In this document: one piece after another, positions 1,941 to 13,928 of the stretch | Layout of the letters: the number at the start of each line of letters is the position of its first letter | Numbering within the stretch: position 1 is the stretch's first letter | DNA from: Promethearchaeia archaeon | GTDB taxonomy: Archaea; Asgardarchaeota; Lokiarchaeia; Sigyniarchaeales; SOKP01 | NCBI GenBank assembly: GCA_046497275.1 | Contig: JAWOFX010000064.1 | Span: 52-24,051 of the forward strand | Length of the DNA: 24,000 bases | Reading direction: 5' to 3' | Program-made: the position numbers and the translations under genes | The notes under the pieces: model-generated | Database searches by the model: none | Told to the model about the DNA's origin: nothing | The model's input: only the letters and a program-made list of their open reading frames with translations

Positions 1941-2342
1941 TTATTCTTCAAAGATCTTGACTAGATTTCTTGCTGCTACCCGCATCACTTTCACAGTCTT
2001 CATTAGCGTATCTATAATTGTTCCAGCGCATACAATTACTAATTTTCCGGCATTTGTGATAACGATATATCCATCTTCTGCCCTCAAAATTATTTCACTG
2101 AGATCTTCTTGAAATAATTGTTGGATAGTAGATCTTCCTGTCATCAGAAGAGCAGACGCTAATCCACAAAATTGATCTCCATCAACTTTATAATGGGGCA
2201 GAGCGGAGAATGCTATCTGGTACCCCTCTGAGGAGACTAATGCAATCGCTTCAATATCTGCATTAGAGGTTATGAATGTTATTTCTGGTGAAATCTTCTC
2301 TATATCATCGTTAGTTATTCCTAGATCGCTCCCAAACTGAAT
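1941..2342 (-). CDS. Roadblock/LC7 (MglB-like) domain protein, ~133 aa, probable non-canonical ATT start
   Basis: The track gives only a 67-aa ATG fragment (1941-2144). The frame stays open 72 more codons upstream to a TAA at 2363-2361. It reads continuously as a Roadblock fold: ...ITFITSNADIEAIALVSSEGYQIAFSALPHYKVDGDQFCGLASALLMTGRSTIQQLFQEDLSEIILRAEDGYIVITNAGKLVIVCAGT.... No ATG/GTG/TTG exists in that extension. The ATT at 2342-2340 is preceded by AGGT (2353-2350) with a 7-nt spacer, the same geometry as GAGG-N7-ATG at fba. Confidence 0.65.
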   Translation of the reverse strand: MQFGSDLGITNDDIEKISPEITFITSNADIEAIALVSSEGYQIAFSALPHYKVDGDQFCGLASALLMTGRSTIQQLFQEDLSEIILRAEDGYIVITNAGKLVIVCAGTIIDTLMKTVKVMRVAARNLVKIFEE

Positions 2343-2527: not shown

Positions 2528-4849
2528 ATGATAACAACCAGAGAATCTATCAATTATCAATTTTCATTAATATATGGATATTCATCGCCTAATCATGAGA
2601 ATTTGATGGTTGGAGATATAATAAGTCCAGGAAATCTAACAAAAAATCTAATAAATGAGTTATCAAAAGATGTAATTAGATATTTAACTGAATTTAACGC
2701 AATGCTGCGGGATTATACAGGATCTGAATTATACTCTGTTGAATTCGAATTATTAAATTATAAAGAAGGAGATTATAGTATTAAAATTTATCCAAAATCA
2801 ATGTTACTAATGCCTGGAAACTATAAAGAATGTGAAAGTCTTATGCTTGCATTAAAACCCGAAACAGGATATCTGAACGTTCATAAGTCTAGTCAATCAA
2901 TAAACGGGATAAGTAAGCTATTTTTCGAAGTTGAAGATTATGCCAATCATCCTAATCTTGATTATAATGAAAAGAAACAAGTTTATAAAACATTTGCTAC
3001 AAGATTTAGTAAAAAATTGTTTGGTGAATTAATAGAAGATAAATGGAATAAGAAATTAATTGGTTTATCTGAATCATTACCCACAGATAAAAAAAATTTA
3101 AAAATTTATAGCAAGCTAAAATCTAATTTAGAAATAAACTGGTATAAAACACCCTTTGAAATAAAACTTTCACAAATTGAGTTCGGAAAAATTAGAGATC
3201 CTTTTGAAGGGAAGTCCGCAATTGAACACCTTAAATTTAGTATAACAGAGCCGAGTGCGGGATTTGTGATTGAAAAAACGTTAAAATTAGGGTCTAATTT
3301 ACTAGATTTAGCAAATTGGGGTACAATTGATGAATTTCAAGAAAGAATAATTAAGTTTATCTTAAAAAAAACGAGAGATACAATTTTATTAGACTTAGAT
3401 AACAAATCTGAGATCCAAATAATTTCTCTATTTGACAATTTTCTTAAGCAAATAAAACAGAAATTAGAAGAATTTACTATATATTGTAAAAAATTTCTGA
3501 AAACCGGAGAGAAAGGAGATCTTGCTGAAATTTTATTAAAATTAAAAAAATTTCTTAAAGAGCAGAATCAAAATTATAGACAAGAAGAAATTCAAGATAT
3601 ATACATTATTCTTAGGGATTTTATAAAAAAAACAATAAGTAAAAAACAAGAAATTAGAGCAAATGATTTTAATTCTTCTTTTAATTATTTTTCTGAATTG
3701 ATAAATAGATCTTTTAATAAAATTCAAGAAAGTCTACCGAAATATCTTTTAATCAGAAGACTTAATAAAACAGTTCAAACCTTAATTAAAAAACTTAAAA
3801 GTGAATTTGATAAGGAACAAAAGCCTGTTAAGATATTGGGTTATAGATTTATTGAAAAATTTAGAGATCATCTTCTAAAAATGATTAATAAATATTCAAT
3901 CTTAACAGAAAAAAAAATAGTATTTGAAAGGGATATTATAAAAAAGAACTTTATTAGATTAATCTCAAACTATTTAGATGATTTTTTTGATAATGTCCAA
4001 TTAGGAATAGCAGAAATTATTTCTTTTGCTGAAATAAACACAGATGAACATTCGAAAAATATATCTCATTATATTGAAGATTTCAAAAAGTTCTCAGATG
4101 AAATACATTTCCTTTTAAGTTATATCCTAAGATATTCCACTATAAATAGATTTATAAAAGATAAGCCAGATAAAGACATCTCGGACCCTGTTTCTTTCTC
4201 AACTAAATTTCATAGATTTCTAGAAAAAAGATTAGCAGGGATCGATTTAATTTGGAAATCTGTAATTTTAGATTGGATAAAAAATTATGCTAAACTCTTT
4301 TTTAAATTAGAAGTCAATAGAATGTGGACAATTAATGAAATTTATACTGATTTTATCAACTATCTCGAGGAGAAGGAGAAAATATCTAGAAATCCCAATA
4401 GTTTCACAGAATTCCTGGACACTTTCATAGCTAAAGTTGAAAATGAAGATGAGAAGAAAACTCTAATGAAGTTTTACGAGCAATATAAATATTTTATTGG
4501 AGTTAATACTGAATTTCCTAAATACTTACGTGAAAAAATTGAAACTCAAATTAAAAGTTTAAATTTAGATTGGGAAAATGATTTTCCAATAGAAATTTTA
4601 TCTTCAAATGAGAATTCAAATAGTTTTTATGAATATATAAGAGAAAATGAACTAAAATATTTTTCAAATTTAATCCCTGTTCCATCAACCATGATATTAA
4701 AACATAAACTAAACAATGAGGAGTTAGAACTCTTTAAGGGAGATTTATTCCAAGTGTTTGGTTTTAAGAATTGGGGAGTTGGAAATATTGCATTAGATTT
4801 ATCTGATAATTTTCAGGAAGTATATAGAGAGTGGATAAAAGAATTATGA
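2528..4849 (+). CDS. large orphan protein A (773 aa): mixed alpha/beta N-terminal ~130 aa, then a long K/E/I/N/F-rich apparently helical region; function unknown
   Basis: An uninterrupted 2.3-kb ORF in DNA where stop codons are very frequent, so it is almost certainly coding. ATG start with a TATA-like TTATATAG ~34 nt upstream. I saw no Walker A, TM segment, Cys/His cluster or other recognisable family motif. Confidence 0.8.
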   Translation: MITTRESINYQFSLIYGYSSPNHENLMVGDIISPGNLTKNLINELSKDVIRYLTEFNAMLRDYTGSELYSVEFELLNYKEGDYSIKIYPKSMLLMPGNYKECESLMLALKPETGYLNVHKSSQSINGISKLFFEVEDYANHPNLDYNEKKQVYKTFATRFSKKLFGELIEDKWNKKLIGLSESLPTDKKNLKIYSKLKSNLEINWYKTPFEIKLSQIEFGKIRDPFEGKSAIEHLKFSITEPSAGFVIEKTLKLGSNLLDLANWGTIDEFQERIIKFILKKTRDTILLDLDNKSEIQIISLFDNFLKQIKQKLEEFTIYCKKFLKTGEKGDLAEILLKLKKFLKEQNQNYRQEEIQDIYIILRDFIKKTISKKQEIRANDFNSSFNYFSELINRSFNKIQESLPKYLLIRRLNKTVQTLIKKLKSEFDKEQKPVKILGYRFIEKFRDHLLKMINKYSILTEKKIVFERDIIKKNFIRLISNYLDDFFDNVQLGIAEIISFAEINTDEHSKNISHYIEDFKKFSDEIHFLLSYILRYSTINRFIKDKPDKDISDPVSFSTKFHRFLEKRLAGIDLIWKSVILDWIKNYAKLFFKLEVNRMWTINEIYTDFINYLEEKEKISRNPNSFTEFLDTFIAKVENEDEKKTLMKFYEQYKYFIGVNTEFPKYLREKIETQIKSLNLDWENDFPIEILSSNENSNSFYEYIRENELKYFSNLIPVPSTMILKHKLNNEELELFKGDLFQVFGFKNWGVGNIALDLSDNFQEVYREWIKEL

Positions 4850-7236
4850 TTAGCGGGATAAAAAGAAAGTCAACAGCGATGGAAAGTGCATTTAGATACT
4901 TTCAAACTGTTGATTTAATCATCTCTCATTTTAAGAGAGAAGCCGACAAAGAGAAGATTTTTGAGATATTAGATGAGACATTTACATTAAAAGATTTACT
5001 AGTTTCGACAGCAGCAATTCATATTTATCATAACTTAGGGATAAGAGTTGAACAAGCAATTGATATTAAGGAGGGTACTGTTGAATCCTCAAGAAAGCAA
5101 GAAATATTGGAGAAACAAAATATATTTGAGGAAGTGAAATATCTTCTTAAAGATTCCTTTGAATCTGAAATGGATATCTTTATGAGGATAATTGAACTTG
5201 AAAATAGATTTATTAATTTATTAATAGATTTAAGAGATCCAAACATTTCGGAAAATCAAAAACAAGAAAAATTGAATGAAATAGATCAATATTTAGAGAA
5301 AGAATTATTGAAATTTATTTTGGAATATAAAATCTTTAATTTTTATGATCTTATAGGAGATTTAATAGGTTATACCAATGAAGTGAAAAAAGATATTTTA
5401 GATGTTAGTGGAGATTTCAAAGACTTGTCAATTGAATTAGAAAAAAGACTTAAACAAGAGGAAAAAGAGGATAAATACATAGAATTATCAACCTTGAATA
5501 GAATAATTGAAAAAATAAAAACCAATTTTGAGTTCAAATCTTATCAAGAATTAAAAATGCAGGCCATGCCTGTTAGAATGATTAAAAAAGAAATAATTAA
5601 TCATGATTTGGAACGTTTTCCAATCTCTATACCTGGTTTGATGGCATTTAAAGAAGCAAATCGATTAAAAGAGAGATTAATAAAAAAAATTGAGGAAAAT
5701 TTAGAAAAAAAGATAGATTATCAACATTTTGAAGAAGAGATTTTCTCGTTTATGAAAAAGGAGATTATTGAACAATTAAATACAAATCCAAATGACTTTA
5801 TATATTTTTTACAAAATCTTAATGAAGAGAATTTCGAGGAGATTATTTATACACTTCACAAATATGGTATTTTTAATATTTTAGAATTAATCAATATCGA
5901 CGATGATTTGGCTAAAAAAGTAAAAGAAAATATGATTCGGTATAATATTAAAAAATTCGATATAATCCAACTTAATGATCGCAAAAAAAATATTTTAATA
6001 AAAACTAAAAAGGTATTAAATGAGATAAGCAGGAGCAATTTACAAAAAATAGAGGGCATTAATGATGAAATTATAGATTTAAAGAAAATAATAAAAGAGG
6101 AAAAGAATAATAATTTGGAATTATGGAAATTGATTGAAAATAAAACTGGTTCTGATTATATTGAACTTAAAGAATTTATAAGAAAGAAAGAAATTGTGGA
6201 TAAAATCTTTTTAGAGAATTTGGGAATAATGAATTATTCTCAAATATTGTTATTACTGGATTTTGAGAATATTATCAATAATTTGGTTAAAGATACTTTC
6301 TTTTATATCTTATCAAAAATTTTAAGACAATTGAGCAGAATTATCGAAGCTTTTTTAAAAATTACGAATGAAAAAACCCTTTATCTTTTAGCTTTTAAAA
6401 AGATGTATAATACAACAGAATCAGAAGATTGGGTATGGATAAAACTCGAGGAATTGATAATTCAGAGATTAATTAAGAGACAAAGTGAATTAGTAGTCTT
6501 ATTTAATGCCTATGACAGACCCTTTTTAATAAACGGATTTATATTAGCAAGATTAACTGAATCATCATTAGAAAAAGCTAGAAATATTCTAGAGAATAAA
6601 ATAAGTCCCATATATGAAGATATTAAACCAATAAAACTTAAAAAAGATTTGATCTCTCCAATATCCTATTGTTTAGCTTATGATTTAATTAAAAGGTTTG
6701 AAAATTATGAAGAATTAAGAAAAGAAAATGTACTAAAAATAATGGAAGAAAAAGTAGAGCAAAAAGAAAAAATTAAAAAGGAAATAAGAAGAAATCAAGA
6801 AAAAAATACATTCAATTGGATAGAGAGAAAAATAACTTCCTCTTTAATGAGGATAAATAGCCCAGGGATAAATCCAAATCAATTATATTGGACTGAAAGG
6901 GATACAAAAATTACTTCAGATAATATAAAACTTCATAGTGAATTAAATGGAGATACTTTTGATTTGTTTATAGAATATTTTCAATTTGCTATTGATAAAA
7001 TCGAATCTCTCTATTCTGATTTGAAACTTCCTAATCCGGAAAAAATCAAATTTATAATAAGGAAGATTATCAACGTTATTTTAAAAGAGAGATTTGCGCA
7101 TGAGCCTAATCTTGAAGAAATCAACAATATGTTGGATGGGGAAAGATATGAAGTCGCTAAACAAATTGCAAAAAAGATTGGGACTATATTAGATAAAGCA
7201 CTATATTCTAAGTTTAAATTAAAAAGAAAATCATAG
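4846..7236 (+). CDS. large orphan protein B (796 aa from ATG 4846; 801 aa if GTG 4831): K/E/I/N-rich, apparently helical; function unknown
   Basis: ATG 4846-4848 overlaps the TGA stop of protein A (4847-4849) as ATGA, the classic translational-coupling arrangement. It is an uninterrupted 2.4-kb ORF with no recognisable catalytic motif or TM segment. A T6 run at 7242-7247 follows the TAG. Confidence 0.8.
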   Translation: MISGIKRKSTAMESAFRYFQTVDLIISHFKREADKEKIFEILDETFTLKDLLVSTAAIHIYHNLGIRVEQAIDIKEGTVESSRKQEILEKQNIFEEVKYLLKDSFESEMDIFMRIIELENRFINLLIDLRDPNISENQKQEKLNEIDQYLEKELLKFILEYKIFNFYDLIGDLIGYTNEVKKDILDVSGDFKDLSIELEKRLKQEEKEDKYIELSTLNRIIEKIKTNFEFKSYQELKMQAMPVRMIKKEIINHDLERFPISIPGLMAFKEANRLKERLIKKIEENLEKKIDYQHFEEEIFSFMKKEIIEQLNTNPNDFIYFLQNLNEENFEEIIYTLHKYGIFNILELINIDDDLAKKVKENMIRYNIKKFDIIQLNDRKKNILIKTKKVLNEISRSNLQKIEGINDEIIDLKKIIKEEKNNNLELWKLIENKTGSDYIELKEFIRKKEIVDKIFLENLGIMNYSQILLLLDFENIINNLVKDTFFYILSKILRQLSRIIEAFLKITNEKTLYLLAFKKMYNTTESEDWVWIKLEELIIQRLIKRQSELVVLFNAYDRPFLINGFILARLTESSLEKARNILENKISPIYEDIKPIKLKKDLISPISYCLAYDLIKRFENYEELRKENVLKIMEEKVEQKEKIKKEIRRNQEKNTFNWIERKITSSLMRINSPGINPNQLYWTERDTKITSDNIKLHSELNGDTFDLFIEYFQFAIDKIESLYSDLKLPNPEKIKFIIRKIINVILKERFAHEPNLEEINNMLDGERYEVAKQIAKKIGTILDKALYSKFKLKRKS

Positions 7237-7293
7237 AAATATTTTTTATAGAATTATAATTATATAACTAAAAAGAAACGTTGATACATTATC

Positions 7294-7566
7294 TTGTCAA
7301 ACATAAGCTCAAAAGTTAGAGACTTTTTAAAAAATCTACTAAATTCATTACCTGAAATAATCTTTGGCTTCATTTTATTTTTGCTGGCAATTTCAGGGGT
7401 AATTATTGCTCTCATTTTAAGATCTCTCGGTTTTAATGGAGCAAATATAGTATTTTTAAGTTTAATAACGGAAATTTTCTGTTTAATTGCCGGTTATTTT
7501 ATTTTTAATCGAAGATATATAAAGGAAGAACCAGAGAAGGAAAAAATAAAGAAATTTAAGAAATAG
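7294..7566 (+). CDS. small membrane protein (90 aa, 2 predicted TM helices, K/E-rich tail)
   Basis: TTG start; the ORF contains no ATG. Two hydrophobic stretches: PEIIFGFILFLLAISGVIIALIL and ANIVFLSLITEIFCLIAGYFIF. It lies 57 nt downstream of orphan protein B on the same strand. Confidence 0.45.
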   Translation: MSNISSKVRDFLKNLLNSLPEIIFGFILFLLAISGVIIALILRSLGFNGANIVFLSLITEIFCLIAGYFIFNRRYIKEEPEKEKIKKFKK

Positions 7567-7573
7567 CAACTTT

Positions 7574-8287
7574 TTACTCTATAAATTTCTCCCATTTTTG
7601 TGTGTTATATTTGTGATTGGATAAATATTCTTTCAAATCTTCTATCAAAACTTCTGGATTATATTCCCAAGCATGATTTTTATTAAAAGAAATGCATTTA
7701 ACATTATTATAACTGAATATTGATTTAAACAATAACCCATAAGAAGCAACTTGAGGTAGAGAATATAAAAAATTACCTTCTGGTTTATAATCTACAATTT
7801 TTATCATCTCTTTCTTAATTTCTATCAAATCAATGTGTCCAGTTATATATTCTCCATTGATTTTTTTCCAAATCGGAGTTTCAATAGCAATAGAATTACG
7901 ATCTCTTATCAATATATTTTTAAGTATTGGATCATGACCAGGATTTTTGTTTATTTTATTTTTTAGAAAATTTTGGTAGACTTCATTCGCAAAACGAGAT
8001 AATTTGTAATCAGAATCGAATTTTATAATCTTTCCGGTGCGAACCAATTGTTTACTATAACTTCTTAAATATGGCCCCTTAATCCCCTTTAGCTTAAAGT
8101 TTGATATTCTTTGAATATTTTTCATATTAAAAATTTGATTAGGCACTCTTCCTTTATAGATCTCTTGAAAAAATTGTTTTAATTTCTTATAATCTTGATT
8201 TAATTGATTAATTTTTTCTAATCGGCTCTTATGATAATGAAAACTATAACGTATATTTTGGTGATAAAAATCTCTTCTATTTAGCAT
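7574..8287 (-). CDS. PD-(D/E)XK nuclease superfamily protein (RecB/Cas4-like core without the Cys cluster)
   Basis: Ordered motifs: E136 (IAIETP), D153 (GHIDLIEI), D166-Y-K168 (KIVDYKPE) and Q179-x3-Y183 (PQVASY). This is the motif I-IV pattern of RecB-family nucleases. The N-terminal ~130 aa is basic and I cannot assign it. Confidence 0.6.
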   Translation of the reverse strand: MLNRRDFYHQNIRYSFHYHKSRLEKINQLNQDYKKLKQFFQEIYKGRVPNQIFNMKNIQRISNFKLKGIKGPYLRSYSKQLVRTGKIIKFDSDYKLSRFANEVYQNFLKNKINKNPGHDPILKNILIRDRNSIAIETPIWKKINGEYITGHIDLIEIKKEMIKIVDYKPEGNFLYSLPQVASYGLLFKSIFSYNNVKCISFNKNHAWEYNPEVLIEDLKEYLSNHKYNTQKWEKFIE

Positions 8288-12872: not shown

Positions 12873-13304
12873 ATGTCTGATAAACTTATTTATTCGGTTA
12901 TTGGCTTACAAGATTTCATAATATCTTTTGAAAAATATTGTGACCCCTGTGAAATCCAACAGCATTGCAAATATGGAAAAAACAATCCTTTTTCTATTCA
13001 AATTAATTGTAATGATATTAATAGTTCAAAAGAAAAGATTAAATATGAACAACTAAAAAAATTACAAAAAACAGAAGACGTCACCGTGTCTTACGATGAT
13101 TTAATAAAAAAGATAAAGATAAATTTACAAACAATTTTTTCAGAAATTTGGAAAAATAAGATCAAAAATCAGAAAGAAGAGATAAGATGTCTTGATTCAA
13201 AAAAAGTTGATTCAATTTTAGTAGCACAACAAGGTCAAGATTGGTGGCAAGATTTTAATAAAGTAATGACTAAAATCAATGAAGAATGCGAAATGATTAT
13301 GTAA
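12873..13304 (+). CDS. hypothetical protein (143 aa), K/E-rich with an N-terminal C-x2-C-x6-C patch
   Basis: ATG ORF with a TATA-like AAATATTTATAG ~33 nt upstream. No recognisable family. Confidence 0.5.
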   Translation: MSDKLIYSVIGLQDFIISFEKYCDPCEIQQHCKYGKNNPFSIQINCNDINSSKEKIKYEQLKKLQKTEDVTVSYDDLIKKIKINLQTIFSEIWKNKIKNQKEEIRCLDSKKVDSILVAQQGQDWWQDFNKVMTKINEECEMIM

Positions 13305-13364: not shown

Positions 13365-13928
13365 ATGATTTTAAATGATTCTCTCTTCCAAATTTATAAT
13401 AATCTTATCGAAATTGTTTTTATTTTTATGAAATATATCTTAGTCTTGATTCTAATAATAATTGGAATTTTAACTTTATTACGTTTAAGAGGGATATATC
13501 TTAATAAAAAAATTTATAATACTACAGAAATCAAAAATCAGGATCCTCTTAATCAAATAAGGCTTATACTTGGATTCTCTTATATTTTTTTGGGGATTGG
13601 GATTTTATTTAATTATTTGATCTATTTTATGATATGGATTTTGGATCCTTTACCTGATAGAATTGCTTTTTTTCTTTTAAATAAAATAGTGGAAATTCAA
13701 AATTCTCTTAATTTAGATATTGTGACCCCTGATTCATTAAATATTATAAATCTAATTTTCAATTTTTTATCATTTTTATTTTTTTTCGAATTATTACTAA
13801 GCGTTTGGTATTTAATCCATAATAATAAGGTCATAAATAATCCAAGAGGTGCTTTTATAGGTATTATATCTAGTCTTATAGGATGTGTACTTTTCGGTTT
13901 TACCGCTTTCATGCCGCATTTTTTATGA
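13365..13928 (+). CDS. hypothetical integral membrane protein (187 aa, ~4-5 TM helices)
   Basis: Several long hydrophobic segments (ILVLILIIIGILTLL, LILGFSYIFLGIGILFNYLIYFMIWIL, IFNFLSFLFFFELLLSVWYLI, FIGIISSLIGCVLFGFTAF). No family recognised. Confidence 0.55.
   Translation: MILNDSLFQIYNNLIEIVFIFMKYILVLILIIIGILTLLRLRGIYLNKKIYNTTEIKNQDPLNQIRLILGFSYIFLGIGILFNYLIYFMIWILDPLPDRIAFFLLNKIVEIQNSLNLDIVTPDSLNIINLIFNFLSFLFFFELLLSVWYLIHNNKVINNPRGAFIGIISSLIGCVLFGFTAFMPHFL

Follow-up and report, generated by a model that had tools for sequence, protein, structure and literature searches.

What do two large adjacent genes encode when neither resembles any characterized protein family, and do the two belong together? 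The question is raised by genes A and B in a 24,000-nucleotide stretch of DNA from a Promethearchaeia archaeon of the class Lokiarchaeia (GenBank assembly GCA_046497275.1, contig JAWOFX010000064.1, positions 52 to 24,051 of the forward strand), hereafter termed the window and used for all coordinates unless another locus is named. Gene A (2528–4849, plus strand) opens with ATG and encodes 773 amino acid residues, and gene B (4846–7236, plus strand) encodes 796, giving a combined size of ~1,570 residues. The sequence of protein A fully matches (100% identity) the database entry R6W84_07475 (Promethearchaeia archaeon). Both reading frames are intact, and the TGA stop codon of A overlaps the ATG of B within ATGA (4846–4849), an arrangement suggestive of translational coupling. 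There are two possible starts for B, GTG at 4831 and ATG at 4846, and we regard the latter as the real one because the B orthologues all open with MISG. The two uninterrupted frames and their junction had already been pointed out in an initial inspection of the bare nucleotide letters and their translations (the sequence-only reading), which proposed a candidate undescribed system. From the analyses described here, we lean with moderate confidence toward A and B forming a vertically inherited, cytoplasmic and Asgard-specific two-subunit complex, of which the subunits are synthesized in a coupled manner and which serves as a non-enzymatic scaffold or adaptor.

No credible match for A or B was found in Pfam, NCBIfam, PADLOC or PHROGs, and a motif scan of the two proteins turned up neither Walker A nor CxxC nor HExxH. 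Neither contains a transmembrane (TM) segment by the Kyte–Doolittle scale in a 19-residue window, the highest mean reaching 0.83 in A and 1.29 in B, whereas the two-TM (2-TM) protein encoded downstream scores 2.99. Both A and B are soluble. The sequence-only reading had likewise noticed no Walker, TM or metal-cluster motif and no nameable family. A and B are not detectable paralogues of each other (hhalign probability of 0.2%), nor is either built from internal repeats, as segment-by-segment hhalign comparisons all stayed at 12% or below.

On the other hand, the same reading called the two proteins orphans, and this label did not survive the searches. Hundreds of full-length homologues exist: a collection of 5.8 billion proteins contained 285 relatives of A and 345 of B, and A is encoded in 126 GTDB species according to a scan of one genome per species. 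The best matches listed for A and B were mostly full length, ~50–57% identical, all annotated as "hypothetical" and devoid of Pfam domains. An exhaustive hidden Markov model search of 1.84 billion cluster representatives yielded 105 A clusters (at 50% identity), 50 of which had E-values below 1e-30. Most of the 105 carry no source name, and all of those with a checkable source derive from Asgard metagenome-assembled genomes (MAGs); among the profile-search matches with a checkable source, no full-length A member was found outside Asgard MAGs. Divergent full-length A sequences were assigned to taxa by source names and gene contexts, and represent Helarchaeota, Freyarchaeota (915 aa), Jordarchaeales (881 aa), Thorarchaeota (850–880 aa), a second Lokiarchaeotal subfamily (~789 aa) and a group of ~770 aa with uncertain placement. 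No viral relative of A or B was detected in the 2.9 million viral contigs of IMG/VR. Altogether, the pair appears to be restricted to Asgard archaea. Full-text searches of the literature on Asgard structural catalogues, Roadblock/longin proteins and asCOGs retrieved no description of it.

Long-term purifying selection has acted on A as well as on B. Within Lokiarchaeia (80+ species), the median identity across loci is 49.7% for A and 54.4% for B, and the rates of the two genes resemble those of their housekeeping neighbours Trm5 (47.7%) and DUF371 (55.6%). The identity of the relatives drops to 14–20% in the classes other than Lokiarchaeia.

Some taxon labels met in this survey deserve a remark. 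Locus L027 (DATKTW010000128.1) is labelled "Candidatus Nanopelagicaceae bacterium" and displays the full Lokiarchaeial order of trpB2, Roadblock, A, B, C and nuclease genes at 49–82% identity; this contig probably belongs to an Asgard archaeon and was mis-binned or mislabelled. Furthermore, a single MAG deposit series (isolates DZ*, QM* and TM*; tags ACFF*/ACFE*; loci L007, L010, L029, L034, L039, L056, L057, L059, L061 and L074) is labelled as Hod-, Hermod-, Thor- or Odinarchaeota, and the A and B proteins and synteny of its members are not distinguishable from those of Lokiarchaeia (in the "Odin" case, from those of Thorarchaeota). The labels of this series look unreliable.

The linkage between A and B was examined in 82 fetched Lokiarchaeial loci. 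B follows A in 81 of them, the remaining locus ending inside A, and the geometry of the stop/start overlap is identical in 73 of the 78 loci in which it could be scored. The linkage extends to Thorarchaeia, Jordarchaeia/Freyarchaeia and two other divergent groups, including further Lokiarchaeial subfamilies. Among the seven loci fetched from divergent groups, a B homologue lies directly downstream of A in five, either overlapping A or starting no more than 4 nt after it. The assignment of the downstream genes to B received support from hmmsearch in the four cases tested (E-values of 1e-30 to 1e-49) and from blastp clustering in the other two divergent pairs. Outside the main Lokiarchaeial clade, A and B share an end/start coordinate in a Thorarchaeial locus (L085), are 2–4 nt apart in the Freyarchaeial and Jordarchaeial loci and in L084, and overlap by 8 nt in L088. 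When nine divergent loci are considered together, A occurs in all nine and B in seven, and they have no other neighbour in common. The sequence-only reading had raised the prospect of a strain-specific orphan or annotation artefact should the adjacency not recur in other genomes, and the recurrence described above disposes of that concern.

The two genes also move together. In L028 and L041, the orientation of the entire A–B block is reversed with respect to its two flanks, and the same probably applies to L023. The block in these loci is bordered by TGT, DUF371, Trm5 and the nuclease gene on one side and by the Roadblock gene (visible in L028 and L041) and trpB2 on the other. The breakpoints fall in the two intergenic stretches, and none of the three loci has a detected 2-TM gene. 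As only A and B stay together across distant lineages while the other neighbours change, the evolutionary unit is A–B alone, and this unit already existed when the lineages of Loki, Thor and Jord separated. The Asgard A–B family newly defined here has an A gene directly followed by B, with an overlap or at most 5 nt between them, and five invariant residues in the N-terminal domain of A (see below); the pair in the window, with its ATGA overlap and all five residues, belongs to it.

A few loci depart from the common layout. In L013, A and B seemed to be 3.2 kb apart, but the distance is an artefact of scaffold gaps in a locus that contains N runs and two copies of A–B: an N run breaks a copy of B and a copy of the Roadblock gene (2736–3640 of that locus), a second A–B pair of ~95% identity follows, and scaffolding has probably joined two strain variants. 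The B gene of L086 encodes 590 aa and precedes a separate ORF of 174 aa, so that B may be split or frameshifted there; directly upstream of the A-like gene of this locus are two tandem eIF5A-like paralogues (1262–2242). In two Helarchaeota loci with a solitary A, a divergently oriented gene for a conserved protein of 404–412 aa precedes A (L087, 6612–7826; L089, 6570–7808). The protein has no Pfam domain and no similarity to B, and GatCAB lies downstream of A in both loci.

The structure of A was modelled with AlphaFold2 (AF2) from the family alignment at a mean predicted local distance difference test (pLDDT) score of 73.5 and a predicted template modelling (pTM) score of 0.70. The model comprises an N-terminal alpha/beta region, a beta hairpin at residues 192–220, a helical body of ~480 residues (229–710) with one helix of 50 residues, and three C-terminal strands, in agreement with the mixed alpha/beta start preceding a helical body that had been anticipated in the sequence-only reading. 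Residues 1–180 (2528–3067, plus strand) are the best-conserved region of the whole family in the broad alignment, the windowed conservation being 0.36–0.46 there and 0.23–0.38 elsewhere, and they are modelled with low confidence: pLDDT falls below 50 at residues 1–39, 97–137 and 157–184. In the broad alignment, five residues (G29, E72, L75, P89 and F156) show no variation from Loki to Thor. The order of elements in residues 1–170 is beta-beta-alpha-beta-beta-beta-alpha-alpha, of which the first two strands were deduced from the sequence pattern.

B was predicted with greater confidence (pLDDT of 82.7, pTM of 0.71, again from the family alignment) and consists only of helices, 38 in total, many of which span 20–46 residues. 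Among the conserved non-helical motifs of the Lokiarchaeial B proteins, MRINSPGINPNQLYW at residues 668–682 (6847–6891, plus strand) stands out most. M668, G674, I675, N676, P677, L680 and W682 are invariant in 70 Lokiarchaeial B sequences, and W682 and D686 are near-invariant throughout the family. The extreme N-terminus of B is strongly conserved yet poorly predicted by AF2. In the broad B alignment, all of the full-length B sequences outside the main Lokiarchaeial clade (Thor, Jord, Freya and Lokiarchaeial subfamily ii) carry an insert of ~28 residues with the motif CxxC-x7-CxxH, which corresponds to the site between L700 and N701 of the window's B (6945–6946, plus strand). Judging from the alignment and the motif scan, this putative zinc knuckle is ancestral in B and was lost by deletion in the lineage of the window. 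Pfam gives weak matches to the TFIIB zinc ribbon for two B members, at E-values of ~1e-3 (9e-4), which fits the presence of such a knuckle.

Apart from these two matches, a Pfam scan of every divergent A and B member returned only scattered coiled-coil noise. Foldseek against 350,542 PDB chains gave nothing below an E-value of 0.05 for A or B, with TM-scores of at most 0.12 in whole-chain alignments and probabilities of at most 0.18. The non-significant lists were composed of generic long-helix proteins, namely scaffolds of the nuclear pore complex (NPC), karyopherins, MukB, TM domains of ABC exporters, ClyA-type toxins and the dynein tail. A had no match among the viral structures of BFVD. 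Profile searches of PDB sequences with narrow and broad alignments of A and B, as well as with the isolated N-terminal domain of A, produced designed bundles and chance matches, the best of which (E-value of 9.5e-4) was a de novo three-helix bundle. Thus, none of the families and folds tested accommodates the pair, which is hence regarded as new, on the basis of negative searches of limited sensitivity. The candidate system of the sequence-only reading stands in so far as the pair is real, tightly coupled, conserved and uncharacterized, the profile and Foldseek searches having led to no characterized family.

How could the pair work? We propose that the overlap leads to coupled and roughly equimolar synthesis of A and B, of which the products would assemble into a heteromer. 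Residues 1–39, 97–137 and 157–184 of A and 1–20 of B are candidates for interface or partner surfaces that fold upon assembly, because they are conserved yet not placed by the monomer models. The role of the complex would be that of a scaffold or adaptor without enzymatic activity, and the N-terminal alpha/beta domain of A and the ancestral zinc knuckle of B may be its partner-recognition modules.

Several observations weigh against this proposal. Two Helarchaeota loci possess A without B within 8 kb, so that A may function by itself or together with some other protein. No fused A–B protein appeared in any of the match lists. The correlation of mirror-tree distances between A and B (r = 0.86) is matched by that between A and the neighbouring nuclease (r = 0.88), and partial correlations do not discriminate between the two. 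Finally, the invariant charged residues of B, E96, D168, E213, R498, E501 and E536, would also fit an enzyme.

This last point leads to the alternative that A and B are the subunits of an enzyme with a novel helical fold, in which scattered invariant acidic and basic residues make up the active site. In addition to the residues of B listed above, E72, E112 and R159 of A are charges kept across very divergent members, a YHxxG[IV]R motif near the N-terminus of B is retained from Loki to Thor, and the INSPGINPNQLYW loop is conserved. Nevertheless, no enzyme family was matched by sequence or fold, no metal or nucleotide motif was recognized, and the neighbouring genes are not metabolically coherent across lineages. 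Buried salt bridges in a helical interface would explain the invariant charges equally well, and we consider an enzyme unlikely.

Slightly less likely still, in our assessment, is a platform for small GTPases, in which A would contribute a longin- or Roadblock-like N-terminal domain and A–B, possibly with a Roadblock protein, would act as a factor for guanine nucleotide exchange (GEF), a GTPase-activating protein (GAP) or an anchor by analogy with Mon1–Ccz1, FLCN–FNIP or Ragulator. The proposed A–B complex has a two-subunit arrangement in common with the longin heterodimers (Mon1–Ccz1, FLCN–FNIP and C9orf72–SMCR8) and the Roadblock platforms (Ragulator and MglB). The best-conserved part of the family, the ~170-residue alpha/beta domain of A, has the element order of longin, as seen from the model together with the sequence pattern. 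The comparison with longin suffers from the low confidence of this part of the model, in which the first two "strands" are not themselves modelled, and from the lack of any match in sequence or fold: Foldseek against the PDB retrieved no longin or Roadblock structure, hhalign gave a probability of 0.2% for A 1–180 against a Roadblock alignment, and among the 25 most frequent of the 52 Pfam families listed for 39 divergent A members there was neither longin nor Roadblock. Neither A nor B matches Robl_LC7 of Pfam, and the only match is the separate neighbouring gene. Both subunits of the known complexes carry longin or Roadblock domains, unlike B, which consists of helices only, and these complexes have no counterpart of the helical body and the three C-terminal strands of A.

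The genomic context had led the sequence-only reading to suggest a Roadblock-associated complex, and this suggestion was not supported. A Roadblock/LC7 gene (1941–2339, minus strand; Pfam Robl_LC7, E-value of 3.2e-9) is indeed the divergent neighbour of A, and it is found in the same position in 79 of the 82 Lokiarchaeial loci with a median identity of 87%. However, in Lokiarchaeia the genes trpB2, Trm5, DUF371 and TGT widely keep their order around A–B too, and local synteny says little on function because these housekeeping flanks are equally syntenic at Lokiarchaeial depth. Where the A–B block is inverted (L028 and L041), the Roadblock gene stays beside trpB2, and the Thor, Freya, Hel and subfamily-ii loci lack a Roadblock gene linked to A–B. 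The Jordarchaeial locus has a single Roadblock gene, located 6.6 kb upstream of A–B with five genes in between, and the Freyarchaeial locus has an Arf/Ras-type small GTPase gene two genes downstream of B (L083, 14278–14988). Asgard genomes are rich in both Roadblock and small GTPase genes, and chance proximity is to be expected. The Roadblock hypothesis therefore survives in a weakened form, as the linkage is Lokiarchaeia-specific and breakable.

We regard it as still more doubtful that A–B is a diverged version of a helical scaffold of eukaryotic type, such as the large subunit of a coat or adaptor, a tethering factor, a nucleoporin or karyopherin solenoid, or a kleisin-associated HEAT protein. 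The resemblance to alpha-solenoid and helical-bundle scaffolds (karyopherins, nucleoporins, adaptor subunits, Scc3/Pds5 and vinculin) lies in the size of ~800 aa, the helical nature of B, its solubility and its lack of a catalytic motif. Such proteins fill the top of the Foldseek lists, with MukB, Nup192 and other NPC scaffold chains, exportin-4, CAND1, Scc3, Pds5, AP2 and vinculin for B, and NPC ring subunits and the dynein tail for A, but the scores described above are at the level of noise, and the solenoid matches of B all have E-values of 0.5 or higher. No match to HEAT, ARM or TPR was found in A, B or their relatives with Pfam at E-values of 0.01 or below, apart from single-member noise at ~0.03–0.09. 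A–B differs from solenoids in having no detectable repeats and, to our eyes, many of the long helices of B look more bundle-like than HEAT/ARM. Moreover, the profile searches found no full-length member outside Asgard archaea among the matches that could be checked, with the reservation that most of the 105 clusters are unnamed. In the Jordarchaeal locus, a 398-aa HEAT-repeat protein is encoded on the same strand from 20 nt after B (L090, 13037–14233), and it is a possible lineage-specific third component.

Bolder is the idea that A–B is an Asgard-specific heterodimer with a true longin platform in the N-terminal domain of A and a solenoid-like cradle made of the helical bodies, a relative or forerunner of the eukaryotic longin machines. 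It would work on the enlarged set of GTPases and Roadblock proteins present in Loki-, Thor- and Jordarchaeia. We hold this to be a long shot. If true, A–B would be a prokaryotic relative of the adaptor/coat half-complexes or the longin GEFs and GAPs that organize membrane traffic driven by small GTPases.

Two further candidates were rejected. The ClyA-family two-component proteins (YaxA/YaxB, SmhABC and AhlABC) resemble A–B in being encoded by adjacent genes and forming bundles of long helices, and their members co-assemble. YaxA, SmhB, AhlB and ClyA were among the Foldseek matches of A without significance (E-values of 0.5–1.7). A and B are twice as large as these toxins, have no hydrophobic insertion segment, as is evident from the hydropathy maxima given above, show no evident secretion signal, and are core chromosomal genes of free-living archaea; a pore-forming toxin of this type is thus rejected. 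Likewise, an ATPase related to SMC, MukB or Rad50 does not agree with the absence of Walker A, the poor match of MukB (E-value of 0.076, TM-score of 0.07) and the multi-helix globular model of B.

The least tenable alternative, also put forward in the sequence-only reading, is a defence or accessory module with the PD-(D/E)XK nuclease beside a tRNA gene, and it is largely refuted: the Cas4-like nuclease gene is convergent and lies 8 nt past the 2-TM gene C, tRNA-Arg lies 240 nt further on, and the nuclease is co-located in 73 of the 82 Lokiarchaeial loci, but PADLOC (no anti-phage system model of PADLOC-DB) and PHROG matched none of A, B and C, viral relatives are lacking in IMG/VR, the GC content of the locus equals the genome background, the position is fixed in 80+ species between housekeeping flanks, opposite to the patchy distribution of defence islands, and both nuclease and tRNA are missing from the A–B loci of other classes.

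We thus return to the two-subunit scaffold or adaptor as the favoured reading, and to the genes around it. Synteny at the level of the lineage accounts for the position of the Roadblock, 2-TM and nuclease genes beside A–B, and they are not components of the system. Gene C (7294–7566, plus strand) starts with TTG 57 nt after the stop codon of B and encodes the 90-aa 2-TM protein noticed in the initial inspection. It occupies the same position in 57 of the 82 Lokiarchaeial loci with 31–63% identity, and is not beside A–B in Thor, Jord, Freya or other divergent groups. From the run of six T residues at 7242–7247, also recorded in the initial inspection, and TTATATAA at 7260–7267 between B and C, we infer that gene C is probably transcribed separately from its own promoter. 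A scan for bacterial sigma-70 promoters was uninformative in the window (50 found against 48.9 expected), and the positions of TATA elements upstream of 80 A orthologues did not form a single sharp peak, so that promoter and terminator assignments here are provisional. The nuclease gene (7574–8287, minus strand) weakly matches PDDEXK_1 (E-value of 1.3e-3), Cas4 (0.011) and a PHROG exonuclease (5e-3).

The start of the Roadblock gene appears unusual. The ORF has no ATG, GTG or TTG upstream of codon 67, and ATT at 2337–2339 (minus strand) aligns exactly with the ATG start of the orthologue in L001 (MEFGTDL...). The orthologue in L063, 95% identical, also has Ile at this position, which suggests a putative non-canonical start, ATT, common to these two related genomes.

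The GC content of the A–B locus is 0.23–0.27, in comparison with 0.22–0.33 across most of the window and ~26% for the window as a whole; the sole outlier is the region of trpB2 (0.35–0.41). The locus had been described as more AT-rich than its neighbours, and this impression holds for trpB2 only. The richness of A and B in K, E, I, N, F and L most plausibly reflects the genome-wide GC content of ~26%. Of the candidate system as a whole, conservation and coupling of the pair remain, but it is neither orphan nor compositionally distinct, and neither of the two functional links proposed for it holds.

Other genes of the window, as read from their translations, are presumably typical archaeal ones, including TFB, archaeosine TGT, ABCE1 and class I LysRS. 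Two ORFs on the plus strand, 12873–13304 (143 aa) and 13365–13928 (187 aa), had no credible family match, and the product of the latter looks multi-TM when judged by eye. In the Freyarchaeial locus, an IS605 OrfB/TnpB (Cas12f-like) gene is present ~6 kb upstream of A (L083, 515–1693).

The importance of A–B would be smaller if it turned out to be a structural protein peculiar to its lineage and without broader connections. Specialists expect many uncharacterized proteins in Asgard archaea, and a pair of ~1,570 residues that spans classes is still a concrete target among them. The pair is well-defined and tractable, as it can be co-expressed, is available from many Lokiarchaeial genomes and has confident monomer models. 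A solved complex would add a new fold and a new complex to archaeal cell biology, or would show a diverged link to a eukaryotic scaffold.

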